This document shows positions 2,945 through 29,904 of a stretch of 62,927 bases of DNA, piece after piece (positions within the stretch are counted from its first letter, which is position 1; the number at the start of each line of letters is the position of its first letter). The DNA lies in contig CAYLJE010000003.1 of the NCBI GenBank assembly GCA_964383915.1, forward strand, positions 1-62,927, written 5' to 3'. The notes under the pieces were generated by a model, which ran no database searches, was not told the origin of the DNA, and worked only from the letters and a program-made list of their open reading frames with translations. The translations under genes were made by a program, and so were the position numbers. The DNA comes from an uncultured Rikenellaceae bacterium. GTDB lineage: Bacteria > Bacteroidota > Bacteroidia > Bacteroidales > VadinHA17.

Positions 2945-2971
2945 GATTAAGAATTAAATACGTAAAAATTT

Positions 2972-3994
2972 ATGGGACTTTTTTCATTATTGATGCAGGA
3001 AATTGCGCTTGACCTGGGTACTGCCAATACGATTATTATTTATAACGATAAGATTTTAGTGGACGAACCGTCCATAGTGGCTATGGATAAAGCCAGTGGA
3101 AAATTAATAGCAATAGGGAAAAGAGCCCGGCAGATGCAGGGTAAAACTCCTGAACACATTAAGACCATCCGTCCGTTGCGGGATGGGGTCATTGCTGATT
3201 TTGATGCTGCCGAGTTGATGATCCGGGGAATGATAAAAATGACCAATTCCAAACCGAGATTATTTAATCCTGCCTTGCGCATAGTGGTGTGTATTCCTTC
3301 GGGGAGTACAGAGGTAGAGATTCGTGCTGTAAGGGATTCTTCCGAACATGCCGGCGGACGTGATGTGTATATGATTTACGAACCTATGGCTGCTGCCATC
3401 GGTATCGGTATTGATGTGGAAGCTCCTGAAGGAAGTATGGTTGTGGATATTGGAGGAGGAACCACGGAGATAGCCGTGATCGCCCTCGGAGGCATCGTTA
3501 CCAACAAGTCTATACGGATTGCCGGAGATGGATTTACCGCAGATATACAGGCATATATGAGACATCAGCACAATATTAAAGTGGGTGAGCGGACGGCTGA
3601 GGATATAAAAATTAATGTGGGTTCAGCCTTACCGGATTTGGATGATCCGCCACAGGATTATGTGGTCAGGGGTCCTAACCTGATGACTGCTCTGCCCATT
3701 GAAGTGCCTGTCTCTTATCAGGAAGTGGCTCACTGTCTGGATAAATCGATCTCAAAAATTGAAACAGCTATTTTAGGTGTGCTGGAACAAACTCCCCCTG
3801 AACTGTATGCTGATGTCGTTTCTCACGGGATTTATCTGGCAGGGGGGGGAGCTCTGCTGAGAGGCTTGGATAAACGTTTGACGGATAAGATTAATATCCC
3901 TTTCCATATTGCTGAAGATCCTTTACATGCTGTGGCCAGAGGCACCGGTATAGCCTTAAAAAATGTAGATGAATTTTCTTTTCTGATGAGATAA
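2972..3994 (+). CDS. mreB: Rod shape-determining protein MreB
   Basis: DLGTANT, EPMAAAIG, VDIGGGTTE and LAGGGALL actin-like motifs. Confidence 0.97.
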   Translation: MGLFSLLMQEIALDLGTANTIIIYNDKILVDEPSIVAMDKASGKLIAIGKRARQMQGKTPEHIKTIRPLRDGVIADFDAAELMIRGMIKMTNSKPRLFNPALRIVVCIPSGSTEVEIRAVRDSSEHAGGRDVYMIYEPMAAAIGIGIDVEAPEGSMVVDIGGGTTEIAVIALGGIVTNKSIRIAGDGFTADIQAYMRHQHNIKVGERTAEDIKINVGSALPDLDDPPQDYVVRGPNLMTALPIEVPVSYQEVAHCLDKSISKIETAILGVLEQTPPELYADVVSHGIYLAGGGALLRGLDKRLTDKINIPFHIAEDPLHAVARGTGIALKNVDEFSFLMR

Positions 3995-4016
3995 TTATAA
4001 AATCGTCGCTTGATGA

Positions 4017-4835
4017 ATGAGGTATTTATTAAAAATAATATATAAATATCATTTTTTTCTGCTTTTTCTCATGCTCGAGGCGATTGCTTTATCTATGGGT
4101 ATTCAGTATAATTTATACCAGCGTGCCCGTTTTGTGTCTCTTAGCGAAAATATCTCAGCCTATTTTAACGAATCCATTAGTTCTTTTACTGACTATTTTA
4201 ATCTTATAGAGACAAACCGGAGATTGTCACTGGAGAATGCGAAGTTGAAAAATCAGCTTCAGCGGGTTTACAGATCTGATAATCTTTTCTTTTTCGGAGA
4301 AAATGATACCCTGCACCGGCAGAAATATTTTTTTACTTCTGCCAGGGTTATTAAAAACAGCGTAAACCGGATGCATAATTATCTTACCCTTGACAAAGGA
4401 TCAGAGCAGGGGGTCCGGCCGGAGATGGGAGTGATCTGTCCCGAAGGAATTGTTGGAATTACAGCCGGCGTTACCCGCAATTTTACCTCCGTTATCTCTT
4501 TGCTAAATGTCAATTTCCATGTCAGTGCCAAACTGAAGAAAAATAATTACTTTGGGACTTTGTCCTGGGGCGGGCAGGATTACCGTAAAGCTGTGTTGCA
4601 GGATATTCCGTATCATGTTCAGATTGAGGTGGGTGATACGATTGTTACCAGCGGATACTCTGCGGTGTTCCCGGAAGGAATCATGATCGGGAAGGTTGAA
4701 AAAGCAATCATAAAGAATGGTAACTTTTATACTGTCACGGTAAGCTTATCTACGGATTTTAAGCATCTGGTCTATGTCGATGTGATAAGAAACCTTCAGA
4801 AAGAGGAACAAAATAAACTGGAAACGCATGATTAA
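4017..4835 (+). CDS. mreC: Rod shape-determining protein MreC
   Basis: N-terminal TM helix, coiled coil ENAKLKNQL, GDTIVTSG; follows mreB. Confidence 0.93.
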   Translation: MRYLLKIIYKYHFFLLFLMLEAIALSMGIQYNLYQRARFVSLSENISAYFNESISSFTDYFNLIETNRRLSLENAKLKNQLQRVYRSDNLFFFGENDTLHRQKYFFTSARVIKNSVNRMHNYLTLDKGSEQGVRPEMGVICPEGIVGITAGVTRNFTSVISLLNVNFHVSAKLKKNNYFGTLSWGGQDYRKAVLQDIPYHVQIEVGDTIVTSGYSAVFPEGIMIGKVEKAIIKNGNFYTVTVSLSTDFKHLVYVDVIRNLQKEEQNKLETHD

Positions 4836-5352
4836 TTCTCTGTTAAGAAATAGTTTCCTTTTTATAGTACTGATTCTGGTACAAATCCTGATACTGGACA
4901 ATCTGCAGTTGAGCAGTTATGCTGTTCCTTTCCTATACGTACTTTTTATTTTGATGCTCCCTTTTGAAACCCCGGGATGGGCGCTTTTATTGCTGGCTTT
5001 TGTGATGGGCTTTACTATGGACCTGTTTGAACATACTTATGGCATTCATACGGCGGCTACACTTCTCATGGCATGGTTCCGTCCGGGGGTCCTGCGGTTA
5101 ATCGCTCCAAGGGAAGGTTATGCGTCCAATACCTTGCCGGGGATCTATGACTATGGATTAGGCTGGTATCTTAAGTATGTTGTAATCCTTGTTTTTATTC
5201 ATCATTCTTTCTTGTTTTATTTTGAGGTATTTTCTTTTAAACATTTTTTTGATACTTTACTAAGGGTGATTATCAGCTCGTTATTTACTATTATACTGGT
5301 GATATTAAGTCAGTTTTTTGTCCACAAGCCTAAAGTATTTGTCAGGGAATGA
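4828..5352 (+). CDS. mreD: Rod shape-determining protein MreD
   Basis: Hydrophobic 174 aa protein overlapping the mreC stop; position in operon. Confidence 0.9.
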   Translation: MINSLLRNSFLFIVLILVQILILDNLQLSSYAVPFLYVLFILMLPFETPGWALLLLAFVMGFTMDLFEHTYGIHTAATLLMAWFRPGVLRLIAPREGYASNTLPGIYDYGLGWYLKYVVILVFIHHSFLFYFEVFSFKHFFDTLLRVIISSLFTIILVILSQFFVHKPKVFVRE

Positions 5353-7196
5353 AAGAGTATGATCAGTATGCCGGGAGGAAATATGTGATCGGAGGATTAT
5401 TGATTTTGGTGTCCTTGTTGTTCATCGGCAGGTTATTTATTATACAGATTGTGGATAAATCTTACCGGTTGAGTGCAAGCAACAATGTGTTACGGTATGT
5501 TCCCCAGTATCCTGCGAGGGGACTGATATTTGACCGGCATCATGAATTGATTGTCTCCAATGAGGCAGCCTATGATCTAATGATAGTCCCTGCGCAGGTT
5601 ACGGCGTTTGATACTGCTGAGTTTTGTAAAATTCTGAATATTCCGGTTGCTGATCTGGAGCAGGGGATTCGTCATGCTACTGATTATTCCAGACTGAAAG
5701 CCTCTGTACTGGTCAAACAACTTTCTGCCAGAACCTATGCTCTCCTGTCTGAAAAGATGTTTAAGTTTCCTGGATTTTTTGTGCAACCACGTACCATCCG
5801 GCATTATAACTACCCTATGGCCGCTCACATGCTGGGATATGTAGGGGAAGTTACGGAAGATATCATAAAAAAGAATCCTTATTATAAAATGGGGGATTAT
5901 ATTGGTGTCAGCGGGATAGAAAAATCATACGAGAAAAATTTGCGGGGCAAGAAAGGCTTTAATATTTACCTCGTGGATGTTCATAATCGTATCAAAGGGT
6001 CTTTTGAAAACGGGAGATACGATACGACAGCCGTTGTGGGCTCTGATCTGGTTGCGACATTTGACCGGAAACTGCAGGCGTATGGAAAGTCTTTGATGAA
6101 AAATAAGGCAGGCAGTATTGTTGCCATAGAGCCTTCTACAGGGGAGGTGCTATGCATGGTATCCTCTCCGGGATATGTTTCTTCCATGCTTATTGGCAGA
6201 AACCGTTCAAAATATTTCACCAAACTGGTTGCAGACACAATGAAGCCTTTGTTTAACAGGGCAATTATGGCCAGTTATCCTCCGGGATCTACTTTTAAGG
6301 TGGTGAATGCTTTGATCGGTTTGCAGGAGAGGGTTTTGTTTCCTTCTTCTATGTATTCCTGTGCTCCCGGATATTATGCCCCGGGCGTTTATATCGCGTG
6401 CCACATCCACCGGACACCGCTAGACCTGGTCGGGGCCATTCAGAATTCCTGTAATGCTTATTTCTGTAACGTTTTCCGTAATATTTTGGACAACCCAGAG
6501 TATCCATCTATATATCAAACATTTAGTATTTGGAGAAACTACCTTCAGCGTTTTGGCCTGGGACACCGTTTGGGTATCGATTTACCAAATGAACTAAATG
6601 GATTTCTGCCGGATACATCATATTACGACCATTATTATCACAAAAACGGATGGAGCTCGTTAACGTTGATATCGATGGCCATTGGACAGGGAGAACTTGG
6701 GTTAACCCCCTTGCAGATGGCCAACCTGACAGCAACCATTGCGAATAGAGGATATTATATTGTTCCTCATGTAGTGAAGGAGGTGCAGGGGAAATCCTCT
6801 GTTGATCCTGGTTTTTTGGTAAAACATAGTGTTGGGATTGACTCTTCTTATTTTTCTGTTGTGATAAAAGGAATGGATCTGGTGGTTAACGGGGAACCAG
6901 GCTCAGGCTCTACAGCCAGAATAGCCCGGATCGATGATATTCGTGTGTGCGGGAAAACAGGTACTGCTCAAAACCCGCACGGTAAAGATCATTCCATATT
7001 TATAGCATTTGCGCCAAAAAATAAACCGAAAATAGCTGTTTCTGTTTTTGTGGAAAACGGAGGATACGGAGCGACTTATGCCGCCCCTATTGCCTCGTTG
7101 ATGATAGAAAAGTATTTACACGGGAAAATTAAGCGTAACTGGCTGGAAGAATATATACGTAAAACAGATCTGATCCATGGATTACCGGAGAAGTAG
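5349..7196 (+). CDS. mrdA: Penicillin-binding protein 2
   Basis: RGLIFDR, SxxK in YPPGSTFK, SCN and KTGTAQ motifs. Confidence 0.95.
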   Translation: MKEYDQYAGRKYVIGGLLILVSLLFIGRLFIIQIVDKSYRLSASNNVLRYVPQYPARGLIFDRHHELIVSNEAAYDLMIVPAQVTAFDTAEFCKILNIPVADLEQGIRHATDYSRLKASVLVKQLSARTYALLSEKMFKFPGFFVQPRTIRHYNYPMAAHMLGYVGEVTEDIIKKNPYYKMGDYIGVSGIEKSYEKNLRGKKGFNIYLVDVHNRIKGSFENGRYDTTAVVGSDLVATFDRKLQAYGKSLMKNKAGSIVAIEPSTGEVLCMVSSPGYVSSMLIGRNRSKYFTKLVADTMKPLFNRAIMASYPPGSTFKVVNALIGLQERVLFPSSMYSCAPGYYAPGVYIACHIHRTPLDLVGAIQNSCNAYFCNVFRNILDNPEYPSIYQTFSIWRNYLQRFGLGHRLGIDLPNELNGFLPDTSYYDHYYHKNGWSSLTLISMAIGQGELGLTPLQMANLTATIANRGYYIVPHVVKEVQGKSSVDPGFLVKHSVGIDSSYFSVVIKGMDLVVNGEPGSGSTARIARIDDIRVCGKTGTAQNPHGKDHSIFIAFAPKNKPKIAVSVFVENGGYGATYAAPIASLMIEKYLHGKIKRNWLEEYIRKTDLIHGLPEK

Positions 7197-8604
7197 CATA
7201 CTGAGCAGGGTGGACTGGATGACGGTCATCATGTATCTGATGCTGGTGATCTTCGGTTTTGTAAATATCTATTCTTCTTCTTATCATGAGGATCATGCCC
7301 TGATTTTTGATTTTTCTCAACGGTATGGGAAACAGTTTTACTGGATTGCTACAGCTCTTCTTCTGGCCGCAGTAGTTTTTGCAATAAATACACGATTTTA
7401 TTATTTTTTTGCTTTCCCTATTTATATTCTTTCATTACTGTCATTGCTGGCCGTTCTGTTAATTGGAGCCACTATTCACGGATCAAGATCCTGGATAGCT
7501 GTTGGAGCTTTTCACATTCAGGTAGCAGAATTTGCCAAGGTGGCCACCGCACTGGCGCTGGCAAAATATTTGAGTTTTTATAACAGATCACTGACCCGGT
7601 TTAAAACACTGCTGAATGCTTCTTTGATTATTTTTATCCCGGCATCATTGATTATGCTTCAGCCGGATATGGGTTCTACTTTGATTTACCTTGCCTTTAT
7701 TCTTGTGTTATACCGTGAAGGACTTTCTTTGGGTGTCCTGATCGTCGGAGTTCTTTTTGCTTTATTATTTATACTGACCCTTGTCATGGACAAAACCCTT
7801 ATTATTTTAGGATTGCTGGTGTTGGGGTTATTTATTCATGTGATCATTGAAAAAAAAATCAGATATACCCTAACAGGCCTCGTTATTTTGCTTTTAACAG
7901 GGATTGTATTGTGGGGGTTTTCCAGGATTTTCCATCATACTTATTCTGTTTATACAGTTATTTTTCTGACAGTATTCGCCGGAGGCATTCTCTTAATACC
8001 GTTTTTTTACAAGTATAAATTGAAAAAAACAGGTTTTCTTTATTCATTACTGGTCGTCTCTATTTTGTTTACTTTTTCGGTAAATTATGTCTTTAGCAAT
8101 ATTCTTGAAGAACACCAGCGTAAAAGAATTAATATTGTGCTGGGAATCGAATCAGATCCATATGGCTGTGGGTACAATGTAAATCAGTCAGAAATAGCAA
8201 TTGGCTCCGGAGGTTTCGCAGGGAAGGGCTTTTTGCATGGAACCCAGACAAAATTCGACTTTGTTCCGGAACAAAGTACTGATTTTATTTTCTGTACGGT
8301 GGGAGAAGAGTGGGGGTTTATTGGCACTTTTCTGGTTGTTGTTTTTTATGTATTGTTTCTGCTGAGGCTGTTGTATCTGGCTGAAAGGCAACGATCGTCA
8401 TTTAACAGAATCTATGGATATTCTGTTTTTTCACTGTTTTCCGCACATGTTTTGATAAATATTGGTATGACCATTGGCTTGTTTCCTGTGATAGGAATAC
8501 CCCTGCCATTTTTTAGTTACGGAGGATCTTCCCTTTGGGCCTTTACTATTTTGTTGTTTGTTTTTTTGCGGTTAGATGCCGACCGGATGGAAATAGCTTT
8601 TTGA
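7177..8604 (+). CDS. rodA: SEDS family rod shape protein RodA
   Basis: QPDMG, IAIGSGG, PEQSTDFIF and GIPLPFFSYGGSS motifs; follows mrdA. Confidence 0.95.
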   Translation: MDYRRSSILSRVDWMTVIMYLMLVIFGFVNIYSSSYHEDHALIFDFSQRYGKQFYWIATALLLAAVVFAINTRFYYFFAFPIYILSLLSLLAVLLIGATIHGSRSWIAVGAFHIQVAEFAKVATALALAKYLSFYNRSLTRFKTLLNASLIIFIPASLIMLQPDMGSTLIYLAFILVLYREGLSLGVLIVGVLFALLFILTLVMDKTLIILGLLVLGLFIHVIIEKKIRYTLTGLVILLLTGIVLWGFSRIFHHTYSVYTVIFLTVFAGGILLIPFFYKYKLKKTGFLYSLLVVSILFTFSVNYVFSNILEEHQRKRINIVLGIESDPYGCGYNVNQSEIAIGSGGFAGKGFLHGTQTKFDFVPEQSTDFIFCTVGEEWGFIGTFLVVVFYVLFLLRLLYLAERQRSSFNRIYGYSVFSLFSAHVLINIGMTIGLFPVIGIPLPFFSYGGSSLWAFTILLFVFLRLDADRMEIAF

Positions 8605-8614
8605 CAGGAATTAC

Positions 8615-9256
8615 TTATCCGCGTTTTTTTAGAACTTCGGGGAATTCTAACATAAAAACATCTGAAAGAAATAGTTTGATATCAAAAGCTGACATTACAT
8701 AATGAACGATATCAGGAAAGAAGCAGAAAAACTCTTCCCGGTATAAATCATAGTGCGTAATGAGAATACGAATAGCATCATCCGTATAATCAGGTAAGGT
8801 AGTTATCTCACTCATTTTTCTCAGCACATGTTCTATTCCCTCAATAGTGTTGTAGGCTTCCAGCCATCTGTTGAAAATGAAAGAAGGAACAATTTGTTTT
8901 ACGGCTTCAGGAAGGATATCATAATTTTCATGTAGGGTTCTATAGGTTACTTCAGCCAGTTCGGGAAGAGGAACAGATGAAATATAATCCCAGTTGGCCG
9001 AAAGAAAATGATCATAAAAAATATCAATGATGACCCCTGCATACTTATGGTAAAACGGGATAAGCCTTGCCTTACTGTCCTGGACGACGGAATGCGCATC
9101 AGTATAAGAATCAATATGGCGGTGTAAAATAATGCCTTTTTTGATTCCTTCAGGATAAAGGCTGAAATCACGCCCCTTCACATAATCCCCAATAAAATTA
9201 CCAATCCTGACCTGATCAGAATCACCAGACAGAAAGGTATGGGCCAAAAAATTCAT
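8615..9256 (-). CDS. acpH: ACP phosphodiesterase (AcpH/DUF479 family)
   Basis: MNFLAH start, GNFIGDYVKG, HRHIDSYTD and DIFYDHFL motifs. Confidence 0.88.
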   Translation of the reverse strand: MNFLAHTFLSGDSDQVRIGNFIGDYVKGRDFSLYPEGIKKGIILHRHIDSYTDAHSVVQDSKARLIPFYHKYAGVIIDIFYDHFLSANWDYISSVPLPELAEVTYRTLHENYDILPEAVKQIVPSFIFNRWLEAYNTIEGIEHVLRKMSEITTLPDYTDDAIRILITHYDLYREEFFCFFPDIVHYVMSAFDIKLFLSDVFMLEFPEVLKKRG

Positions 9257-9453
9257 ATAAAATAATCTTCTTATTATTTAGACGAAAATTATGCCAAAAT
9301 GGTTGCTAATAAAATTATTTCAGTGTCTTTAAACATATTTTGTAAAATATTTATTTACAGTGCATACACATATTCCATTTTTTATTATTATTAAGGTATA
9401 TTTATACGATTATTGTATATACTATTTTTTATCTATTTAAAATTATTAGCATT

Positions 9454-10791
9454 ATGGCAAAAAGAAGAGTTATCATTATTGGTGCAGCAGGAAGGGATTT
9501 TCATAATTTTAATACTTTCTTTCGAAACAACAACCAGTATGAAGTGGTTGCATTTACGGCGGCTCAGATTCCGGATATAGACAGGCGTTTATATCCGCCG
9601 GAGTTATCAGGGGATTTGTATCCGCAAGGAATTCCGATTTATCCTGAACAGGAGTTGCCAAAGCTGATCCGGGAGATGCATGTGACAGACTGTGTGTTTT
9701 CTTACAGTGATGTTCCCTATCAGAAGGTAATGGAAGTGAGCGCCATTGTCAATGCCAGTGGGGCTTCATTTATGTTGCTGGGTCCGGATGATACGATGGT
9801 AAAAAGTCACAAACCGCTTATTGCTGTCGGAGCAGTACGGACAGGATGTGGGAAAAGTCAGACGTCACGCCGGGTTATTGAAGTTTTGATGGAGAAAGGT
9901 TTAAAAGTTGTAGCCGTCCGGCATCCGATGCCTTATGGCAGTCTGGCGGAACAGAAAGTACAACGGTTTGAAACCCTGGAGGATTTGAACAAAAACCAGT
10001 GTACCATTGAGGAAATGGAAGAATATGAACCTCATATTGTCCGGGGAAATGTGATTTATGCCGGAGTGGATTATGAAGCCATCCTGCGGGCGGCTGAAAA
10101 CGATCCGAAAGGTTGTGATGTGATCTTATGGGATGGTGGTAATAATGATTTTCCGTTTTATAGACCTGATTTAATGATTACTGTGGTGGACCCTCACCGG
10201 GCTGGTCATGAGCGCAAGTATTATCCGGGAGAGGTGACCTTGCGTATAGCCGATGTGGTTATTATCAATAAGATGGATACGGCCCGGCCGGAAGATGTAC
10301 AAACGGTCAGGGAAAATATTAGGGAGCTGGCTCCTGAGGCTGTGGTTATAGATGCAGCCTCTCCCATCCGGGCAGACCATCCGGAAGTGATACGGGGGAA
10401 ACGGGTATTGGTCGTGGAGGATGGTCCGACACTGACCCATGGAGGCATGACCCTGGGGGCCGGCATCGTAGCTGCACGGAAATACGGGGCTGCCGGACTG
10501 GTGGATCCTCGTCCGTTCCTGGTTGGCAAGCTGCATCAGACATTTGAAACATATCCCGGGATAGGCACCTTATTGCCTGCCATGGGATATGGAGAAGAAC
10601 AGTTACACGACCTGGAGAAGACCATTAACAATACCGACTGTGACGCCGTTGTGATCGGGACCCCGATCGACCTGAACAGGATCATTAAGATTACCAAACC
10701 CACTACACGGGTATATTATGATCTGCAGGAAATCGGCGATCCGACACTGGATGATGTGCTGGAGAAATTTGTTAAAAAGATTCAGGGATAG
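9454..10791 (+). CDS. COG2403 P-loop ligase, probably ArcE-type arginine synthetase (family often auto-annotated as GTPase or cyclic 2,3-diphosphoglycerate synthetase)
   Basis: GAAGRDFHNFN N-terminus, AVRTGCGKSQT P-loop, RHPMPYG, WDGGNNDFPF, EDGPTLTHGGM and LPAMGYG. The ArcE assignment rests on my recall of the Thermococcales protein. Confidence 0.7.
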   Translation: MAKRRVIIIGAAGRDFHNFNTFFRNNNQYEVVAFTAAQIPDIDRRLYPPELSGDLYPQGIPIYPEQELPKLIREMHVTDCVFSYSDVPYQKVMEVSAIVNASGASFMLLGPDDTMVKSHKPLIAVGAVRTGCGKSQTSRRVIEVLMEKGLKVVAVRHPMPYGSLAEQKVQRFETLEDLNKNQCTIEEMEEYEPHIVRGNVIYAGVDYEAILRAAENDPKGCDVILWDGGNNDFPFYRPDLMITVVDPHRAGHERKYYPGEVTLRIADVVIINKMDTARPEDVQTVRENIRELAPEAVVIDAASPIRADHPEVIRGKRVLVVEDGPTLTHGGMTLGAGIVAARKYGAAGLVDPRPFLVGKLHQTFETYPGIGTLLPAMGYGEEQLHDLEKTINNTDCDAVVIGTPIDLNRIIKITKPTTRVYYDLQEIGDPTLDDVLEKFVKKIQG

Positions 10792-10842
10792 TTTAGAAAG
10801 AAGGTTAGATTGTTGCTTCGGGGTGCTCTGGGCGCCGGGATG

Positions 10843-12687
10843 TTAATCTATAATTCCCAATAACTTCATCAGGAAAGTAGCATTCATATGTTTTGTGATA
10901 CCCGGATAAAGTATATAATCAAACCGGATAGTATCTTTTTCCGGGACGGCTTCAAAGCATTCGGTAACAATATTATCAGGAAATTCTTTTTCCATTTCGG
11001 CCAGGATAAGATCATGTGTGGCAATAATACCTGCTCCTCCCAGGGAAATCATTTTACGTAGTACGGCTTGCGATCCTGAAGCTTTATCACGGGAGTTAGT
11101 GCCTTTCAATATTTCGTCCAGTAACACGATGACAGGCAGGTGGTTTTTCTCCTTTAGTCTGTCAAGGATGATGCGAAGACGGTTTAGTTCGGCATAGAAA
11201 TAAGACTCGTGTTTTTCCAGAGAATCGCTGGTACGCATACCTGTGTATAAATCGCTGATACGAAAAGACATGCCCCGGGCGCAAACGGGAGCTCCTGCAT
11301 GCGCAAGTATAAGGTTTATGCCCACTGTCCTGAGAAAAGTACTTTTCCCTGCCATGTTAGGACCTGTGATAATATGGAATTCGCCCTTTTTTGTTATAAT
11401 AAAGTCATTATCCACTCTTTCGCCGGCAGGGATCATAGGATGGCCGAGTTTTCCGGCGCAGAGCAAGCTTCCGGTTTCTGTGATCTCCGGGAAGACAAAT
11501 TCCGGGTTATTGGCAGAAAAAGCAGCCAGCGAGTTTAGTGCATCCACTTCTGCCACCACATCAAACCATCTACTCATTTTTCTGCCATAACGTGCCAGCC
11601 ATTTTCTGATACTTATTAATACCCAAAAGTCCCAAAGCATCGTAAGGTTCAGTACCACCCCCACAAAAATATTGTGCCGGGCATCCAGCATATTAAACTG
11701 TTTCACCAGCTTGTCCAGTATCGCACCGGCTGGCATTCCTTCGATATTGAGTTGTTTTTTTAATTGTTGTAAATATTTTCCTGTAAAGTCTTTGGCCCCA
11801 ATATGATTAAGCAGGTGTTTGTTCTTTTGCATGAGGTCAATGACCGAAGAGGTGATCCGGTGATAGCGGTTGATTTTTTTTAGAAAAATCCCTTCAAGAA
11901 GGGCAGGTATTAACAAAAAATATAAAGGGATTTGATAAGGTAGTGTCCCGACCCCCCATAAAATGATCAGCACAAACAAAGAGGCAGGGAGTAAGAACGA
12001 TATGATTTTCGCCCATCTCCATTTTTCAAAAACCGGGGTCATCCGGAGCCATTCCCCAAAATGACTCCGGTCATTCTTTCCTTCAGGTCTTTCTTCTCCG
12101 TATGCATAAAAAAGCTGTCGCCACCGGGGTACTTCGGCTAATTCGCTGATCGTTTCCTGCCTCTGCAGGATGTTTTCTTTTTCTTTTCCGGGATTTTGCA
12201 ACCAGCTTGCCAGCCTGTCTCTCCCTGCCAAAGTTACGGTTCTGTTCATCGCCTGAAACAGAGACATTTTCCCGAAAACATCCAGATCGTATGTAAAAGG
12301 ATGACTACGGTCTATAAATTCATTTCCGGGATCAAATCCTGATAAATCTCCTTTTTGGGCGCGGATTTCTTTTTCATTTAATTGTACGATTTCTTCGGCC
12401 ACTTTTTTCCTGAAAGAACGATTCCCATGAATCTTTATCAATGCAAAAAAAGCAATTAAAAACAATCCGCCGGTAACATCTTCCCATGCCAGACGATTCC
12501 TGATCCCTGAATAAAAAAATGTAAACGAGGCTAAAAAGACAAACAATCGGGACCAGGCGATCCTGGTTATTTGTCGTCCTACAGTTGCAACTTTTTCCGA
12601 AGCTTCTGCCTTTAGGTTTTCATATCCGGGAGGGTTGTGCAGGTAACTTAATTCGTTACGTATCTTTCTTGGCGCCGGGGATATCAT
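10843..12687 (-). CDS. MutS-like ATPase (domain V only) with N-terminal and central TM segments
   Basis: TGPNMAGKSTFLR Walker A, LLDEILKGTNS Walker B, ATHDL. Hydrophobic segments near aa 45-85 and 220-270. No mismatch-binding domain I. Confidence 0.85.
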   Translation of the reverse strand: MISPAPRKIRNELSYLHNPPGYENLKAEASEKVATVGRQITRIAWSRLFVFLASFTFFYSGIRNRLAWEDVTGGLFLIAFFALIKIHGNRSFRKKVAEEIVQLNEKEIRAQKGDLSGFDPGNEFIDRSHPFTYDLDVFGKMSLFQAMNRTVTLAGRDRLASWLQNPGKEKENILQRQETISELAEVPRWRQLFYAYGEERPEGKNDRSHFGEWLRMTPVFEKWRWAKIISFLLPASLFVLIILWGVGTLPYQIPLYFLLIPALLEGIFLKKINRYHRITSSVIDLMQKNKHLLNHIGAKDFTGKYLQQLKKQLNIEGMPAGAILDKLVKQFNMLDARHNIFVGVVLNLTMLWDFWVLISIRKWLARYGRKMSRWFDVVAEVDALNSLAAFSANNPEFVFPEITETGSLLCAGKLGHPMIPAGERVDNDFIITKKGEFHIITGPNMAGKSTFLRTVGINLILAHAGAPVCARGMSFRISDLYTGMRTSDSLEKHESYFYAELNRLRIILDRLKEKNHLPVIVLLDEILKGTNSRDKASGSQAVLRKMISLGGAGIIATHDLILAEMEKEFPDNIVTECFEAVPEKDTIRFDYILYPGITKHMNATFLMKLLGIID

Positions 12688-22489: not shown

Positions 22490-25400
22490 TTAATATTCAT
22501 CCCAGGCCAGAATGCTGATATCATTGGGTGTATATTTACAAAATGCCAGTATAAAAGCGCTGGCAAGACGGGCATTGGTGATCAGGGGGACATTAAAATC
22601 CACTGCACTGCGCCGGATCAGATAATCATTATCCAGTTCGCCTTTCGAAAGATCCTTGGGAATATTAACCACCAGGTCCACTTCACGATTACGGATAAGA
22701 TCCAGGGTATTGGGATTCTTATCTTCGTCCGGCCAGTGAGCCAGTTTTGTTTTGATGCCATACTGATCACAGAACTTTTTGGTACCGCGTGTGGCATAAA
22801 GGGTATATCCTTTTTCCAGCAGGGCATGTGCACTATTGATCAGTTCTACTTTCGAACGGGCCGGGCCGGTGGAGAGAAGAATCTTTTTTTCCGGGATATG
22901 ATATCCCACCGATAACATGGCTTTCAGGATTCCTTCGTAAAAATCATCTCCGATGCACCCTACCTCACCGGTAGAGGACATGTCCACACCCAGCACCGGG
23001 TCGGTAAGTTGCAGTCGTGAAAAAGAGAACTGGGGTGCTTTCACCCCGACATAATCCAGGTCAAAGATGGATTTTGCCAGCGGGGGAACCTGTTCTCCCA
23101 GCATCACGCGGGTAGCGAGGTCGATCAGATTCGTTTTTAATACCTTGGACACAAAAGGCATACTTCGTGAAGCACGGAGGTTACACTCAATCACTTTAAT
23201 TTCATTATCCTTGGCCAGGAATTGTATGTTGAAAGGTCCTGAAATATTCAGCTCACGGGCTATCTCCCGGGAGATACGTTTAATGCGGCGGATGGTCTCA
23301 AAATATATTTTCTGGGGAGGAAAAACCATCGTAGCATCTCCGGAATGAACCCCGGCAAATTCAACATGCTCGGATATGGCATAAGCAATCAACACTCCTT
23401 CCCGGGCCACGGCATCAATTTCAATCTCCTTGGCTTCCTGGATAAATTCAGTAACGACCACCGGATATTGTCTCGACACATCTGCTGCCAGCTTGAGAAA
23501 ATAACCCAGCTCTTCCTTGTTGGATACTACATTCATGGCAGCTCCGGACAGAACATACGAAGGACGTATTAAAACAGGAAAACCGATCCGGTCAACGAAA
23601 CCCTGAATATCTTCAATGCTGGTAAGTTCTTTCCACCTGGGCTGATCTACTTTCAGATTATCCAGCATAGCTGAAAACTTATTTCTGTTTTCAGCCCGGT
23701 CGATAGATACAGGTGAAGTGCCTAATACCTGAACTTTTTGATTGTAAAGCCGTATAGCCAGGTTATTTGGGATCTGTCCTCCTGTAGAGACAATTACCCC
23801 ATAGGGTTGTTCCAGTTCGATGATGTCCATCACCCGTTCAAAAGATAACTCATCGAAATAAAGCCGGTCAGAGATATCAAAGTCTGTGCTGACCGTTTCC
23901 GGATTGTAATTGATGATAACAGAACGATAACCTTTTCCCTTCACAGTGTTTAGGGCACTGACGCCACACCAGTCAAACTCCACACTGCTGCCGATGCGAT
24001 AAGCCCCCGAACCCAGTATAATAACTGAATGCTTATCCTGTTCAAATTGCACATCATGCTCAATAGCACTATATGTCATATACAGATAATTGGTCTGCGC
24101 CGGATATTCTGCGGCCAGGGTATCAATCTGTTTTACATACGGAACAATATTCCGGGATATCCTGTATTGCCGTACCTCTAATAATTTTTCTTCCATCTTT
24201 TCAGGAGGCGGGTTCAGCACAAAACGGGCAATCTGAAAGTCGGAAAATCCTTGGATTTTTGCTTCTGACAGTTTATCATCACCCAGCTCCTTTATTGTCT
24301 TTGAGGAAGCCAATGCTTTTTTCAGATCAAAGATATTTTTCAGTTTATACAGGAACCAGCGGTCTATTTTTGTCAGTTCATGAATGCGGTCAACGGAATA
24401 TCCTTTTTCCAAAGCATCGGCAATGACAAAAATACGCATATCCGTAGGTTGTGCCAGCTCTTTTTCAACATTATCGAAAGTCAGGTTCTGATTTCCGACG
24501 AAGCCATGCATCCCCTGTCCGATCATCCGCAAGCCTTTCTGGATAGCCTCTTCAAATGTTCGTCCGATGGACATTACTTCTCCCACACTCTTCATACTGC
24601 TCCCGATGAGGTGGGAAACTCCTTCGAATTTGTTCAGGTCCCATCGCGGAATTTTACAGACGATATAGTCCAGGGCCGGTTCAAAAAATGCCGTTGTGGT
24701 CCTGGTCACAGCATTCTTTAACTCATGTAATCCGTATCCCAGGGCCAGCTTTGCAGCTACAAAAGCCAACGGATAACCGGTGGCCTTGGAAGCCAGTGCG
24801 CTGGAACGGGACAACCGGGCATTTACTTCAATAACCCGGTAATTTTCCGAATCAGTATCCAATGCATATTGTATATTACATTCCCCTACAATACCGATAT
24901 GCCGGATCACCTGTATGGATAGCGCCCTGAGTTTATGGTATTCCTTGTTAGTCAGGGTCTGCGACGGAGCCACAACAATACTCTCCCCCGTATGAATCCC
25001 CAAGGGATCAAAGTTTTCCATATTACAGACGGTAATACAATTATCAAAGCGGTCCCTCATAACCTCATATTCCACTTCTTTCCATCCTTTCAGTGATTCT
25101 TCCACAAGAATCTGGCCGGTGTAGGAAAAAGCTTTGGATACCTGCTCGGACAGTTCCTTTTCGTTCGAACAGAAAGCGCTGCCTTGTCCCCCGAGGGCGT
25201 ATGCCGACCGGATAATCACCGGATAGCCAAGACTGGCTCCTGCTTTCAATGCTTCATCCAGACCGGTGACTGCTAAGCTCCGGGGAGTCCTGACATGGAT
25301 CTCATTCAATTTGTTGACAAAAAATTCGCGGTCTTCTGTATTCATAATGGCATGAATAGGAGTTCCCATTACTTCAACGCCGTATTTTTCCAATATGCCG

Positions 25401-25711
25401 TTCTTATACAACGTTATTCCGCAATTCAGTGCTGTCTGACCACCAAAAGACAGAAGAATCCCATCCGGGTTTTCCTTCCGGATGACCCGTTCTACAAAAT
25501 AAGGGGTAACCGGAAGAAAATAAATGCGATCGGCAATATTCTCAGATGTCTGGACTGTCGCAATATTCGGGTTAATAAGAAGGGTATAGATACCTTCTTC
25601 CCTCATGGCCTTCAATGCCTGTGATCCGGAATAGTCAAATTCTCCCGCTTCTCCGATTTTTAAAGCTCCTGATCCCAGTAACAGAACTTTTCTCAATGAT
25701 GTTTTTTTCAC
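22490..25711 (-). CDS. carB: Carbamoyl-phosphate synthase large subunit (GTG start)
   Basis: GEAGEFDYSG, PLGIHTGES, EVNARLSRSS, IGSSVEFDW, duplicated ATP-grasp domains and MGS-like C-terminus. Confidence 0.97.
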   Translation of the reverse strand: MKKTSLRKVLLLGSGALKIGEAGEFDYSGSQALKAMREEGIYTLLINPNIATVQTSENIADRIYFLPVTPYFVERVIRKENPDGILLSFGGQTALNCGITLYKNGILEKYGVEVMGTPIHAIMNTEDREFFVNKLNEIHVRTPRSLAVTGLDEALKAGASLGYPVIIRSAYALGGQGSAFCSNEKELSEQVSKAFSYTGQILVEESLKGWKEVEYEVMRDRFDNCITVCNMENFDPLGIHTGESIVVAPSQTLTNKEYHKLRALSIQVIRHIGIVGECNIQYALDTDSENYRVIEVNARLSRSSALASKATGYPLAFVAAKLALGYGLHELKNAVTRTTTAFFEPALDYIVCKIPRWDLNKFEGVSHLIGSSMKSVGEVMSIGRTFEEAIQKGLRMIGQGMHGFVGNQNLTFDNVEKELAQPTDMRIFVIADALEKGYSVDRIHELTKIDRWFLYKLKNIFDLKKALASSKTIKELGDDKLSEAKIQGFSDFQIARFVLNPPPEKMEEKLLEVRQYRISRNIVPYVKQIDTLAAEYPAQTNYLYMTYSAIEHDVQFEQDKHSVIILGSGAYRIGSSVEFDWCGVSALNTVKGKGYRSVIINYNPETVSTDFDISDRLYFDELSFERVMDIIELEQPYGVIVSTGGQIPNNLAIRLYNQKVQVLGTSPVSIDRAENRNKFSAMLDNLKVDQPRWKELTSIEDIQGFVDRIGFPVLIRPSYVLSGAAMNVVSNKEELGYFLKLAADVSRQYPVVVTEFIQEAKEIEIDAVAREGVLIAYAISEHVEFAGVHSGDATMVFPPQKIYFETIRRIKRISREIARELNISGPFNIQFLAKDNEIKVIECNLRASRSMPFVSKVLKTNLIDLATRVMLGEQVPPLAKSIFDLDYVGVKAPQFSFSRLQLTDPVLGVDMSSTGEVGCIGDDFYEGILKAMLSVGYHIPEKKILLSTGPARSKVELINSAHALLEKGYTLYATRGTKKFCDQYGIKTKLAHWPDEDKNPNTLDLIRNREVDLVVNIPKDLSKGELDNDYLIRRSAVDFNVPLITNARLASAFILAFCKYTPNDISILAWDEY

Positions 25712-25857: not shown

Positions 25858-25925
25858 AATGCAAAAATTTGTATTGATAAAATAAAAATGTATAAATTTG
25901 CATCCTAATTACATATTTATGCATT
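25858..25925. promoter_or_regulatory. Three ARG boxes (ArgR operators)
   Basis: 18-bp imperfect palindromes AATGCAAAAATTTGTATT (25858-25875), AATGTATAAATTTGCATC (25887-25904) and ATTACATATTTATGCATT (25908-25925). The last two are 3 bp apart and abut the argR ATG. Confidence 0.8.
25868..25900 (+). promoter_or_regulatory. Bacteroidetes promoter of the argR operon (-33 TTTG, -7 TAAATTTG)
   Basis: TTTG at 25868-25871 and TAAATTTG at 25893-25900 with a 21-nt spacer; both lie inside ARG boxes. Confidence 0.7.
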
Positions 25926-26408
25926 ATGATGGACAAAAATACGAGATTATACCTGATCCGGCAGCTTATCCGGGAAAAAGATATTTGCACGCAGGACCAA
26001 TTATTGACGTTACTGCAAGAAAGAGGCTATTTGGTCACGCAGGCGACCTTATCCCGGGATTTAAAGTTTCTGAGAGCTGGTAAGATTCCTTTTCGGGATG
26101 GAAAGTATAAATATATTTTAGATGAAACGGCACGTTTGGATCCCGGGACAGAATCTCCTCCTTCAAAGGGAGAGGGCTTTGTCTCTCTGGAGTTTGCGCA
26201 ACAATTAGCATTGATTAAAACCCTGCCGGGTTATGCCAACATGCTGGCCATTGCCATAGACAGGGCCAGACGGTACGAGTTTGCGGGAACAGTTGCAGGG
26301 GATGATACCGTCCTGATCATCCCCCGTGACGGCATCAGCAGGGAAGCTGTACGTAAAGCATTGCAGTGGATATTCCCGGATATCAGTGACAGGATCGTAA
26401 AATCCTGA
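25926..26408 (+). CDS. argR: Arginine repressor
   Basis: TQDQLL, VTQATLSRDL and GTVAGDDT motifs. Confidence 0.95.
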   Translation: MMDKNTRLYLIRQLIREKDICTQDQLLTLLQERGYLVTQATLSRDLKFLRAGKIPFRDGKYKYILDETARLDPGTESPPSKGEGFVSLEFAQQLALIKTLPGYANMLAIAIDRARRYEFAGTVAGDDTVLIIPRDGISREAVRKALQWIFPDISDRIVKS

Positions 26409-26444
26409 ATATTTATTAATCATAACTTTTTAATTTTTATCAAC

Positions 26445-27689
26445 ATGAAGAATCATAAAATTGTACTTGCGTACAGTGGAGGGCTGGACACATCGGTCAT
26501 ACTAAAATGGCTCATTGACCGTGGAAATGAAGTAATTGCCTTTGTGGCAGATGTCGGACAGGAAGACAATTTTGATGAATGCAGGCAGAAAGCGCTGGAT
26601 ATTGGGGCCAGTGAGGTAATAATTGATGATCTGAAAAGGGAGTTTGTAACTGATTATATCTTTCCGGCCATCCGGGCCAATGCCATTTATGAAAGCCGTT
26701 ATCTTCTGGGGACGGCTCTGGCCAGGCCGTTAATTGCTAAAAGGATGATTGAAACAGCCAATAAACTGAAAGCGGGGGTGGTCTCCCACGGTGCTACAGG
26801 AAAAGGAAACGACCAGGTAAGGTTCGAACTTTCTTTTTATGCGCTGAATCCGAAAATTGTTGTTTTCTCTCCCTGGAAAGATGCCGAATTTCTGGATCAT
26901 TTCAGGGGTCGCACCGACCTGATCCGTTATGCAGAGAGTGCAGGGATCCCCGTGAAAGCTACCCAAGAAAGACCTTATAGTGAGGATGATAACCTGATGC
27001 ATATCAGTCACGAAGCAGGAATACTGGAAGATCCTGCCCTGAAAGCAGATATGAATGTGTATTCCAAGATCACCCATCCTTTTCTGGCTCCGGACCAACC
27101 GGAGAGTATTGCCATTGAGTTTAAAGACGGCACCCCTGTAAAAGTTATCCATGCAGAAGATGGAAAAGAAATAACAGAACCACTGGAATTATTTCTATAT
27201 CTTAACAAGTTGGGGTCAAAGCATGGGATCGGCTTGCTGGACATGGTAGAAAACCGGTTTGTAGGAATCAAATCCAGAGGTATTTATGAAACGCCCGGGG
27301 CTAAAATCCTGTTCAAAGCACATCAGGATATTGAGGGGATTGCCATGGACCGGGAGGTCATGCGGTTAAGGAACATGCTCTCACCCAAATTTGCCGAACT
27401 GGTTTATTACGGATTCTGGTTCAGTCCAGAGATGGATTTTCTCATGGCTGCCATCCGGAAAAGTCAGGAAGTTATAGACGGAAAAGTTTACCTGACCCTG
27501 TATAAAGGAAATGTGATAATTGACGGCAGGGAGTCTCCCAGCTCACTATATAATCAGGATTTATCCAGCATGGACATTGAGGGAGGATTTGATCAGAAAG
27601 ACAGCAAAGGTTTTATTAAAATCAATGCTATTCGTCTGATGGCTCATCATGCTATTGTGAGTAAACGTAAAAGAAACAATATTATTTAA
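26445..27689 (+). CDS. argG: Argininosuccinate synthase
   Basis: [40 protein letters not shown] motifs. Confidence 0.97.
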
Positions 27690-27763
27690 TATAATAAACA
27701 AACAAATAGTGCCAGGTGCCGGAAGCAGAATCTCCCGGTTGGTTGCTAAAATTTATCCGGATT

Positions 27764-28564
27764 ATGAATCAAAATATTGCTATTCTCGGAGGAGGGAATA
27801 TAGGAGGCGCCATGGTTGAAGGATTTCTGGCAGGCAACTCCATAAACCCGGAACATATTACGGTTACAAGGCGCAGAACACATCTACTGGATCATTTATC
27901 ATCCAAAGGGATTACGATCACTTCAGACAATGTGGAAGCTGTCAGCCGGTCAGATATGGTGATTATTACCGTACGCCCGCGGCAAATGGAACCCCTTCTC
28001 CGGGAGATTGCCCCGGTACTCGATGCCGGGAAGCACGTTCTTATCTCGGTAGTCACAGGATTTTCTATCGCTGAAATCGTGGAAATTACCGGAGATACTC
28101 TCCCGGTAATCCGTGCCATGCCTAATACGGCAGTGGCAGTCAGGGAATCCATGACCGGATTGTCAGCCAACAAATCGGGAGATACCAAAATGGAAATGGT
28201 AAAAGAACTGTTTAATCTGCTGGGACGTAGTTATGTGATTGAAGAGAATTTGATGGCTGCTGCCACCATAATGAATGCCTGTGGCATTGCTTATTTCCTG
28301 CGGGTTATACGAGCCATTTCACAGGGAGGTATTCAGATAGGGTTCCATGCTTCCGAGGCAAAGGTGATTGCTTCTCAGGTGGCCAAAGGAGCAGCCGAAA
28401 TTTTATTGGATTCGGGCATCCACCCGGAAGAAGAAATTGATAAGGTTACCACCCCGCGCGGAGTAACCATCGCCGGGTTGAATGAAATGGAACATCACGG
28501 ATTAAGTTCAGCCCTGATCAAGGGAATCATGACTTCTTTTCACGAAATTGAAAGACTGAAATAA
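27764..28564 (+). CDS. proC: Pyrroline-5-carboxylate reductase
   Basis: ILGGGNIG, RAMPNT and VTTPRGVT motifs; start set at MNQNI (27764). Confidence 0.93.
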   Translation: MNQNIAILGGGNIGGAMVEGFLAGNSINPEHITVTRRRTHLLDHLSSKGITITSDNVEAVSRSDMVIITVRPRQMEPLLREIAPVLDAGKHVLISVVTGFSIAEIVEITGDTLPVIRAMPNTAVAVRESMTGLSANKSGDTKMEMVKELFNLLGRSYVIEENLMAAATIMNACGIAYFLRVIRAISQGGIQIGFHASEAKVIASQVAKGAAEILLDSGIHPEEEIDKVTTPRGVTIAGLNEMEHHGLSSALIKGIMTSFHEIERLK

Positions 28565-29904
28565 TGAAGAAACTGTGGGATAAGAACCTGCCTTTAGACC
28601 AGGCTATTGAACAATTTACCATCGGAAACGATGCCATTCTGGACATGGACCTGGCTCCTTATGATATTATCGGATCCATTGCTCATGTGAAAATGCTACG
28701 GCAGGTCAACCTGCTCACATCAGAAGAAGAAAAAAAACTAACCGGAGAACTCAGGGTTTTATACCGACAGGTTGAGTCCGGGGCTTTTATTATTGAGCCG
28801 GGAATAGAGGACATACATTCCCAGGTGGAAAAAATGTTAACGGATAAACTGGGAGAGACAGGAGAAAAAGTGCATACGGCCAGATCCAGAAATGATCAGA
28901 TCATCCTGGACATCCGGTTATTTACCCGCGACAAACTGGCTCATATCCGGGACAGAATACTCATCTTGTTTAATTTATTAGTAAGTCTCAGTGAGAAGCA
29001 CAAAGATCACCTGATGCCCGGATACACACATTTCCAGGTGGCCATGCCTTCTTCTTTCGGACTCTGGTTTGGATCCTTTGCCGAAAGTCTTGCTGATGAC
29101 GTGTTACTGTTAAACGCTGCATACCGTGTTACCAATCAGAATCCGCTTGGGTCGGCTGCCGGTTACGGGTCTTCTTTTCCTATTAACAGAGAGATTACCA
29201 CCCGTTTGCTGGGGTTTGATGGCTTAACGGTTAACTCAATTTATGCCCAGGCCGGGAGAGGAAAAACAGAGAAAACAACTGCCTTCGCTCTGGCTTCCGT
29301 AGCATCTTCTTTGGGCAGGCTGGCTATGGATGCGGTGTTGTTTATGAATCAAAATTTCGGGTTCATGGAGTTGCCGGATGCTTATACTACCGGATCAAGT
29401 ATCATGCCCCATAAAAAGAATCCGGATGCTTTTGAACTGGTCCGTGCCCGCTGTAACAAGATGCAGGCCTTGCCCAACGAAATCCAGCTGATCATGGGGA
29501 ACCTGCCAACAGGCTATCACCGGGATTTTCAACTGTTAAAAGAATCTTATTTGCCCGCTTTTAATACCCTCGACAGTTGCCTGAAGATAACCATCTTGTT
29601 GTTACAAAATCTACACATCAGGAAGGATATTCTGGGGAAAGATATTTATCGCTATATATACAGTGTAGAGGAAGTCAACAGGTGGGTCAGTCAGGGTATT
29701 CCCTTCAGGGAAGCTTACAGAAAAGTGGCTGAAGAAATCCGCACCGGCCAGTTTCATCCTCCTGAAAAAGTAGCATATACTCACCTTGGGAGTATAGGGA
29801 ACCCGGGCAATGATAAGATCAAAAATAAAATGGATATTATCGTAAAAGAAGTGGACTATCACAAGGCGGAACAATCTATCCGGTTACTAATAAAGCAGGA
29901 TTAA
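28564..29904 (+). CDS. argH: Argininosuccinate lyase
   Basis: HTARSRNDQ, MPGYTHFQ and GSSIMPHKKNPD motifs; TAATG overlap with proC. Confidence 0.96.
   Translation: MKKLWDKNLPLDQAIEQFTIGNDAILDMDLAPYDIIGSIAHVKMLRQVNLLTSEEEKKLTGELRVLYRQVESGAFIIEPGIEDIHSQVEKMLTDKLGETGEKVHTARSRNDQIILDIRLFTRDKLAHIRDRILILFNLLVSLSEKHKDHLMPGYTHFQVAMPSSFGLWFGSFAESLADDVLLLNAAYRVTNQNPLGSAAGYGSSFPINREITTRLLGFDGLTVNSIYAQAGRGKTEKTTAFALASVASSLGRLAMDAVLFMNQNFGFMELPDAYTTGSSIMPHKKNPDAFELVRARCNKMQALPNEIQLIMGNLPTGYHRDFQLLKESYLPAFNTLDSCLKITILLLQNLHIRKDILGKDIYRYIYSVEEVNRWVSQGIPFREAYRKVAEEIRTGQFHPPEKVAYTHLGSIGNPGNDKIKNKMDIIVKEVDYHKAEQSIRLLIKQD

Follow-up and report, generated by a model that had tools for sequence, protein, structure and literature searches.

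A 62,927-bp stretch of DNA from an uncultured Rikenellaceae bacterium (GenBank contig CAYLJE010000003.1) carries an open reading frame (ORF) with an ATG start at 9454..10791 on the plus strand. This locus raises the question of whether the 445-aa product is an arginine synthetase (ArcE) and, if so, in which direction it would work in a genome that also encodes ArgG and ArgH. The stretch, referred to below as the window, is an entire metagenomic scaffold (scaffold_24 of ENA ERZ23499380). The first description of arginine synthetase dates from 2024, and the archaeon Thermococcus kodakarensis is the one organism in which the enzyme has been characterised (TK2200; Michimori, Yokooji and Atomi, PNAS 2024; PMC11032458); there it catalyses the near-equilibrium reaction Arg + ADP + Pi <-> Cit + ATP + NH3. 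The sequence comparisons and the structural model described below indicate that the window protein is very probably a bacterial ortholog of this enzyme. The fuller statement, that the ortholog runs catabolically and supplies carbamoyl phosphate, is favoured by a modest margin over its negation.

Relationship of the window protein to ArcE and to cyclic 2,3-diphosphoglycerate synthetase

We compared the window protein with its orthologs from Thermococcus peptonophilus (P0527) and Pyrococcus furiosus (P0516). The identities were 62% (274/442, 589 bits) and 63% (593 bits), respectively, and the Thermococcales alignments extended over the full length with one 3-residue gap only. The length of 445 aa is close to the 447–449 aa found in Thermococcales. 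P0527 and P0516 served as proxies for TK2200. A protein of Thermococcus sp. 21S9 represents a 201-member cluster (≥90% identity) that covers both Thermococcus and Palaeococcus. The 15 members listed include T. peptonophilus (P0527), T. eurythermalis, T. sibiricus, T. argininiproducens, and Palaeococcus pacificus, and do not include T. kodakarensis; P0516 was very similar to this cluster as judged by eye. Because arcE (TK2200) is found throughout Thermococcales (PMC11032458) and the cluster is defined at ≥90% identity, TK2200 should share about 90% identity or more with both proxies.

More than 8000 homologs of the window protein were found, and those of Bacteroidota were 77–85% identical, far beyond chance. 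At E ≤1e-30, an exhaustive search of representative sequences gave 627 clusters, among which the most distant full-length relatives were approximately 35% identical. The archaeal seeds for further searches were picked by hyperthermophile amino-acid composition; one seed led to Thermoproteota proteins, including those of Hyperthermus, Pyrodictium, and Ignisphaera, and the other led to named Thermococcales proteins.

In an alignment of 36 sequences from Bacteroidota, Thermococcales, Thermoproteota, and Bathyarchaeia, 70 columns are invariant, and the window protein keeps every one of them; it also contains the complete ArcE signature set (GxxGRDxH loop, Walker A TGxGKS, RHPM, WDGGNND, and PTxTHG). 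The Gly-rich loop of the N-terminal domain, GAAGRDFHNFN (residues 10–20; 9481..9513, plus strand, as for all motifs), includes the invariant residues G10, A11, G13, R14, D15, H17, and F19. The Walker A motif (P-loop) RTGCGKS (residues 129–135; 9838..9858) contributes T130, G131, G133, K134, and S135, and the RHPMPYG motif (residues 156–162; 9919..9939) contributes R156, H157, P158, M159, and Y161. WDGGNND (residues 226–232; 10129..10149), which is a Walker-B-like strand end as well as a family signature, is invariant, as are D323, P325, T328, H329, and G330 of EDGPTLTHGG (residues 322–331; 10417..10446). The segments GAAGRDFHNFN, RTGCGKSQTSR, RHPMPYG, WDGGNNDFPF, and EDGPTLTHGGM are letter-identical in the Thermococcales orthologs. 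A preliminary description of this DNA had reported a 445-aa P-loop protein with these five motifs and had assigned them to the Thermococcales protein and not to the cyclic 2,3-diphosphoglycerate (cDPG) synthetase (cDPGS) of Methanothermus; both statements hold, with identities of 62–63% versus 23–26%.

An AlphaFold2 model built from the 36-sequence alignment had a predicted local distance difference test score (pLDDT) of 91.9 and a predicted template modelling score (pTM) of 0.89. This confident model predicts a two-domain P-loop fold of the cDPGS/LpxK type with an LpxK-like core. The closest fold in a Foldseek search was that of Methanothermus fervidus cDPGS (E 3e-17, 16–17% identity), followed by LpxK (E 8e-8), which is also the structural neighbour reported for TK2200 (PMC11032458). 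LpxK, the N-domain of CTP synthase, and dethiobiotin synthetase share the P-loop core with ArcE, whereas the likeness is at the level of the fold only (9–17% identity) and their substrates are different. CTP synthase would further resemble ArcE in its chemistry, with phosphorylation of a carbonyl or ureido oxygen as the activating step that precedes nitrogen attack.

The nearest solved structures are those of cDPGS (PDB 8ORK/8ORU, also 9SXB), a remote homolog with a two-domain P-loop kinase fold and 16–26% identity to the window protein, and we therefore examined how far the two families are separated. A phmmer search of PDB returned 9SXB as the sole match (E 2.7e-5 over approximately 100 residues) and gave no match to 8ORK, and the ArcE family profile scored three cDPGS entries at 58–74 bits. 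Over the shared region, the window protein was 23% identical to M. fervidus cDPGS, 26% identical to 9SXB, and 61% identical to the P. furiosus protein. Neighbor-joining (NJ) trees were constructed with 200 bootstraps and capped distances, and clades were tested through the most recent common ancestor. The two cDPGS sequences, which were used as outgroups and are fragments, were split from all ArcE-like sequences in 200/200 replicates; the clustering with cDPG synthetases that would have contradicted the preliminary description was thus not seen. When the window protein and Thermococcales were joined in their smallest common clade, cDPGS and Thermoproteota fell outside it in 163/200 replicates, and the operon-linked bacterial members described below fell inside it in 162/200. 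Under a stricter exact-set definition of the clade, applied in an earlier NJ bootstrap, the set was recovered in just 8/200 and 31/200 replicates, and deep branching inside the ArcE family was not resolved by the NJ trees.

The profile alignment places R-T130-G131-C-G-K-S of ArcE opposite G-K145-R146-I-G-K149-T150 of cDPGS (P-loop GKRIGKT). K145 and R146 bind 2,3-diphosphoglycerate (2,3-DPG) in cDPGS (PMC10690619), so both basic residues that bind this ligand are missing from the window protein, where T130 and G131 take their places. The counterpart of WDGGNND in cDPGS is (M/L)EGSGA, and that of EDGPTLTHGG also differs (LFATTAPKVVVG); cDPGS thus lacks the WDGGNND and THGG signatures.

Two annotation labels compete with an assignment as ArcE. 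Orthologs from Thermococcus, Pyrococcus, and Bacteroidales are named "cyclic 2,3-diphosphoglycerate synthase" by NCBI and "predicted GTPase" by JGI. The NCBI pipeline gives the former name to many relatives, and cDPGS is the nearest solved structure; however, the same name is borne by Thermococcus proteins of the very lineage shown to be ArcE. The identity of 23–26% over the alignable part (16–17% in the structural alignment), the profile scores of 58–74 bits, the replacement of K145/R146 by T130/G131, and the separate clade in 200/200 replicates lead us to reject cDPGS as the identity of the window protein, and we give this reading virtually no weight. In addition, cDPG has been reported from hyperthermophilic methanogens only, and no candidate for a 2-phosphoglycerate kinase was recognised in Pfam scans of the window ORFs of ≥150 aa, for which no dedicated model was queried. 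The GTPase label could be taken to mean a G3E-type metallochaperone (CobW/HypB/UreG-like), in agreement with a weak Pfam match to cobW (E 2e-6). That match was partial, covering residues 236–299 (64 residues) and profile positions 113–179 of 180, that is, about the last third of the profile, whereas the NCBIfam G3E-type models scored 12–16 bits against cut-offs of 121–600, none passing its cut-off, and the architecture and closest folds of the window protein are different. A G3E GTPase was consequently also rejected, as a scarcely credible reading. Given the characterisation of 2024, both labels are misleading, and that of NCBI is an erroneous product name for the ArcE family.

Gene neighbourhoods of arcE in related genomes

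We scanned species-representative genomes with a 9-sequence alignment as the query and obtained at least 594 relatives. The neighbourhood counts given here refer to the best 80 of these, not to a random sample, and 76 of the 80 had a full-length arcE ORF. The neighbouring ORFs were clustered without prior bias, and their identities were checked with curated models. The best 80 relatives were 64–78% identical to the window protein. On the Bacteroidota side they came from Bacteroidales, Lentimicrobiaceae, Rikenellaceae, and Flavobacteriia, and among other bacteria from Marinimicrobia, Spirochaetota, Desulfobacterota, Chloroflexota, Acidobacteriota, Ignavibacteria, Calditrichota, Cloacimonadota, and Bacillota (Virgibacillus, Sporosarcina, and Bacillus); one Bathyarchaeon was also included.

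A carbamate kinase gene (arcC) was the immediate same-strand neighbour of arcE in 11 of the 76 loci and lay three genes off in one more. Two Melioribacteraceae genomes contained a compact arcE-arcC-ornithine transcarbamoylase (OTC, HCLP type) operon (L078:10001-13356 and L082:10001-13228), which by its predicted gene products is a complete "arginine synthetase pathway" in a bacterium of the FCB group. The operon-linked bacterial members of the arcE-arcC(-arcB) type were 66–74% identical to the window protein and belonged to the same subclade. Furthermore, a 2.8-kb Logan contig encodes a natural carbamate kinase-ArcE fusion (P0127; L006:134-2434), in which a full-length carbamate kinase (residues 3–309; TIGR00746, E 9e-101) is followed by an ArcE domain (residues 328–758). 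The fusion was 47–48% identical to the window protein and stood outside its subclade in the NJ tree. A proteobacterial-type homolog, P0122, adjoined a 306-aa amino-acid kinase. These bacterial links to arcC and OTC reproduce the archaeal arcE-arcB-arcC association that was behind the original discovery; the association with arcB or arcC was found in relatives and not in the window.

A different arrangement was observed in 12 loci (L011, L013, L016, L031, L033, L036, L037, L039, L042, L045, L077, and L081), in which arcE, at about 10001-11340 in most cases, is immediately followed by pyrB on the same strand. Eleven of these loci carried the label Bacteroidales, Bacteroidota, or Lentimicrobiaceae; the twelfth was labelled just "uncultured bacterium". 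The gene next after pyrB was pyrI in 11/12, and carA-carB were inserted between arcE and pyrB in L011 and L013. The divergent 5' gene was argS in 11/80 loci, eight of them being arcE-pyrB loci, and an acpH-type gene was near arcE in 11/80. The arcE-pyrB arrays point to a link of ArcE to carbamoyl-phosphate and pyrimidine metabolism. Neither the two ArcE papers nor a full-text literature search yielded a description of this arrangement. The linkage of arcE to pyrBI, carAB, and argS and the carbamate kinase-ArcE fusion are what the present analysis adds. The novelty claimed in the preliminary description was overstated: no characterised arginine synthetase from Bacteroidota was found in the literature searched, as it had supposed, whereas Bacteroidota (e.g., Petrimonas) were already among the arcE carriers of the 2024 paper, which also contains the argument for catabolism beside ArgG/ArgH (PMC11032458).

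More than a dozen bacterial phyla share ArcE at 64–78% identity, and within Bacteroidota from sediments and digesters the figure rises to 77–85%; this strong conservation across phyla, with near invariance in Bacteroidota, argues for a central role. The proteins of Thermococcales (P0449/P0516) and Bathyarchaeia (P0513; L050, Candidatus Bathycorpusculum soli) were nearer to bacterial ArcE (61–70% identity) than to Thermoproteota ArcE, to which the window protein was 46–47% identical. Since the archaeal-bacterial identity of 61–70% stands beside 64–78% between different bacterial phyla, the sequences suggest strong constraint together with horizontal transfer between the domains.

Several unusual homologs were also encountered. 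P0224 (806 aa) is an ArcE homolog split by a LAGLIDADG intein; after the intein, the alignment with the window protein starts again precisely at Ser135 in the GKS of Walker A, and the N-terminal extein is absent from the predicted protein. Divergent paralogs (P0175, P0283, P0284 of Saccharicrinis aurantiacus, and P0128) showed 38–44% identity. P0175 is without the GKS P-loop and THGG, and P0128 has a degenerate GKG P-loop and is without THGG. To judge from these motifs, the divergent paralogs may be non-catalytic or changed in function. A standard ArcE is present in another Saccharicrinis genome (L072).

Direction and role of the reaction

The equilibrium constant of the characterised enzyme is 10.1 towards citrulline and ATP at 80°C (deltaG0' = -6.8 kJ/mol), its response to ADP is sigmoidal, and the Ks for NH3 lies in the millimolar range (PMC11032458). 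In T. kodakarensis, ArcE is needed for the supply of ornithine and ATP, and it runs towards arginine when citrulline is given (PMC11032458); the pathway also supplies carbamoyl phosphate for pyrimidines (PMC13260591). The authors noted that arcE and arginine deiminase have a complementary distribution among genomes, and they inferred a catabolic role of ArcE where ArgG/ArgH coexist (PMC11032458).

In regards to the chemistry, we infer that in the direction of arginine the ATP bound at the P-loop would phosphorylate the ureido oxygen of citrulline, and NH3 would then displace the phosphate. In the reverse direction, phosphate would attack the guanidinium carbon of arginine, NH3 would leave, and the phosphoryl group would pass to ADP to form ATP. 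Physiologically, arginine would be converted to citrulline with a gain of one ATP, OTC would yield ornithine and carbamoyl phosphate from citrulline, and carbamoyl phosphate would enter either the carbamate kinase reaction or pyrimidine synthesis. Arginine deiminase (ArcA) of the arginine deiminase pathway likewise converts arginine to citrulline and NH3 upstream of OTC and carbamate kinase; unlike ArcE, it has an unrelated fold and acts hydrolytically and irreversibly with no gain of ATP, whereas ArcE is reversible and conserves one ATP. ArgG and ArgH, both encoded in the window, convert citrulline to arginine as ArcE can, in two steps that use aspartate and split ATP into AMP and PPi, whereas ArcE uses free NH3 and splits ATP into ADP and Pi.

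The catabolic direction is favoured because ArgG/ArgH already make arginine, and the presence of CarB besides ArgG/ArgH in this genome makes arginine to citrulline the most probable direction. T. kodakarensis differs in being without ArgG/ArgH and CarB. It is also a hyperthermophile, whereas the window belongs to a mesophilic or psychrophilic sediment bacterium, and the activity of the window protein is predicted from sequence.

Several findings weigh against this catabolic assignment. The connection to TK2200 was made through proxies that should match it at about 90% identity or better, and the characterised enzyme works at 80°C whereas the host is a sediment bacterium. In the window, arcE sits outside any arc-type cluster, with neither arcB nor arcC nearby. 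When every ORF of ≥150 aa on the 63-kb contig, overlapping shadow ORFs aside, was compared with Pfam, no OTC, carbamate kinase, or arginine deiminase (arcA) was found, so that a downstream route for citrulline is hypothetical in the host. No ArgR-like box with ≤2 mismatches was found when the spacer upstream of arcE was scanned, and the anabolic linkage to carAB and pyrBI in 12 relatives fits an anabolic role equally well. The arc pathway genes of T. kodakarensis are themselves dispersed, and linkage is not required (PMC13260591).

The same enzyme could instead be mainly anabolic, an ammonia-dependent last step of arginine synthesis that costs a single ATP and works beside ArgG/ArgH or replaces them, as would be useful in ammonia-rich anoxic sediment. 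The marine sediment source, the near-equilibrium reaction, and the synthesis of arginine in vivo from supplied citrulline (PMC11032458) are compatible with this role, as are the 12 loci in which arcE heads a same-strand biosynthetic array (pyrB, with pyrI in 11/12 and carA-carB in two), the frequent position of argS as the divergent 5' gene, and the failure to find the catabolic partners on the contig. However, ArgG/ArgH are present with ArgR-type operators and arcE is without any, the millimolar Ks for NH3 is unfavourable for synthesis, many members of the same subclade adjoin carbamate kinase, and the authors of the 2024 study infer catabolism where ArgG/ArgH coexist (PMC11032458). We regard a mainly anabolic role as possible and as clearly less probable than the catabolic one. 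An alternative at the level of the substrate is that the protein is a related P-loop amidoligase or kinase acting on a ureido or guanidino compound other than citrulline or arginine. A single family member has been assayed so far, the family is broad, with a floor of approximately 35% identity and divergent paralogs without the P-loop, and the pyrBI linkage could hint at another carbamoyl compound. On the other hand, changes of specificity are unusual at approximately 62–63% identity, which is the level found here to the characterised lineage, with every invariant residue kept, and the members in arcE-arcC-OTC operons fall in the same subclade. Another substrate is thus improbable.

The arcE-(carA-carB)-pyrB-pyrI arrays, next to which argS is encoded divergently, lead us to propose, tentatively, that the ArcE of Bacteroidales is wired into carbamoyl-phosphate and pyrimidine metabolism and not into a classical arc fermentation cluster. 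ArcE would then serve as a valve linking the pool of arginine to carbamoyl phosphate, and the standalone gene of the window might have the same role. Such a valve could turn arginine into a source of carbamoyl phosphate for pyrimidines and gain ATP on balance, as in T. kodakarensis, or, in anoxic habitats rich in ammonia, it could offer a cheaper ammonia-dependent final step in making arginine. If the Bacteroidota enzyme is active, these anaerobes could obtain two ATP per arginine fermented instead of one, and a supply of carbamoyl phosphate for pyrimidines could follow. The arcE-pyrBI linkage is a concrete handle on which of the two roles applies, ATP from arginine fermentation or pyrimidine supply. 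Because the orthologs are mislabelled in public annotation, models of arginine catabolism and of how much ATP it yields are wrong for thousands of bacterial genomes.

Surroundings of arcE and arginine and proline genes on the contig

The 5' neighbour of arcE is an acyl carrier protein phosphodiesterase gene (acpH, 8615-9256, minus strand), and the 3' neighbour is a MutS2-like gene (10843-12687, minus strand). Because both flanking genes lie on the minus strand, arcE is expected from this geometry to be transcribed alone, and the divergent intergenic spacer at 9257..9453 is the expected site of its promoter. The spacer is 197 nt long and 82% AT, compared with 58% AT for the whole window; the preliminary description of an AT-rich 197-nt spacer and solo transcription agrees with these divergent and convergent neighbours. 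No exact -7 box of the Bacteroidota type (TAnnTTTG) was present in 9257-9453, scans for a sigma-70 promoter upstream of arcE and for a terminator were at chance level, and a hairpin downstream of arcE was not significant (z = -1.2). The sequencing runs that hold the window sequence were DNA only, from a marine sediment metagenome, with no RNA-seq run among them. The purH-mreB-mreC-mreD-PBP2-rodA-acpH block on the 5' side (1427-9256) is kept in another Bacteroidales genome (GCA_032942435.1; L002/L003). The 3' side is not syntenic, with gpsA-pgi in GCA_032942435.1 and the MutS2-like gene in the window. The standalone arcE with these conserved neighbours is unlike the bacterial arcE-arcC(-arcB) clusters.

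The conventional route from citrulline to arginine is encoded on the same contig, as the preliminary description had stated, in an argR-argG-proC-argH cluster identified with Pfam at 25926..29904 on the plus strand. It comprises argG (26445-27689), proC (27716-28564), and argH (28564-29904; TIGR00838, E 9e-99). The window also contains carB, for the large subunit of carbamoyl-phosphate synthase, at 22490..25711 on the minus strand, and the genome therefore has a conventional source of carbamoyl phosphate.

Three ArgR-like palindromic boxes (TGYATAAATTTRCA, 0–2 mismatches) are present at 25860..25923 in the promoter of the arg operon, just 5' of argR. These AT-rich boxes (TGCAAAAATTTGTA, TGTATAAATTTGCA, and TACATATTTATGCA) are the sole matches in the window with ≤2 mismatches, and their sequence and position indicate that they are probably ArgR operators. 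Palindromes resembling ARG boxes, e.g., TGTATAAAAATACA and TGTATTAATATGCA, were also observed upstream of arcE in the Bacillales loci L061, L064, and L067 (Bacillus and Sporosarcina), with a tandem pair in L064. They may reflect control of arcE by ArgR/AhrC, a signal inseparable from AT-richness; the enrichment of ArgR boxes across related arcE loci (0.21 versus 0.05 per kb) was likewise inseparable from AT-richness.

The full order of the cluster is argR-argG-proC-argH-proB'-proB-proA, in which arginine and proline genes are mixed and argC, argD, and argF are missing. The full proB lies at 30617-31420 and proA at 31443-32693. Directly before the full proB lies a 227-aa ORF (29918-30601) whose match to the proB model is confined to positions 1–163; it may represent a glutamate 5-kinase that has been duplicated or truncated.

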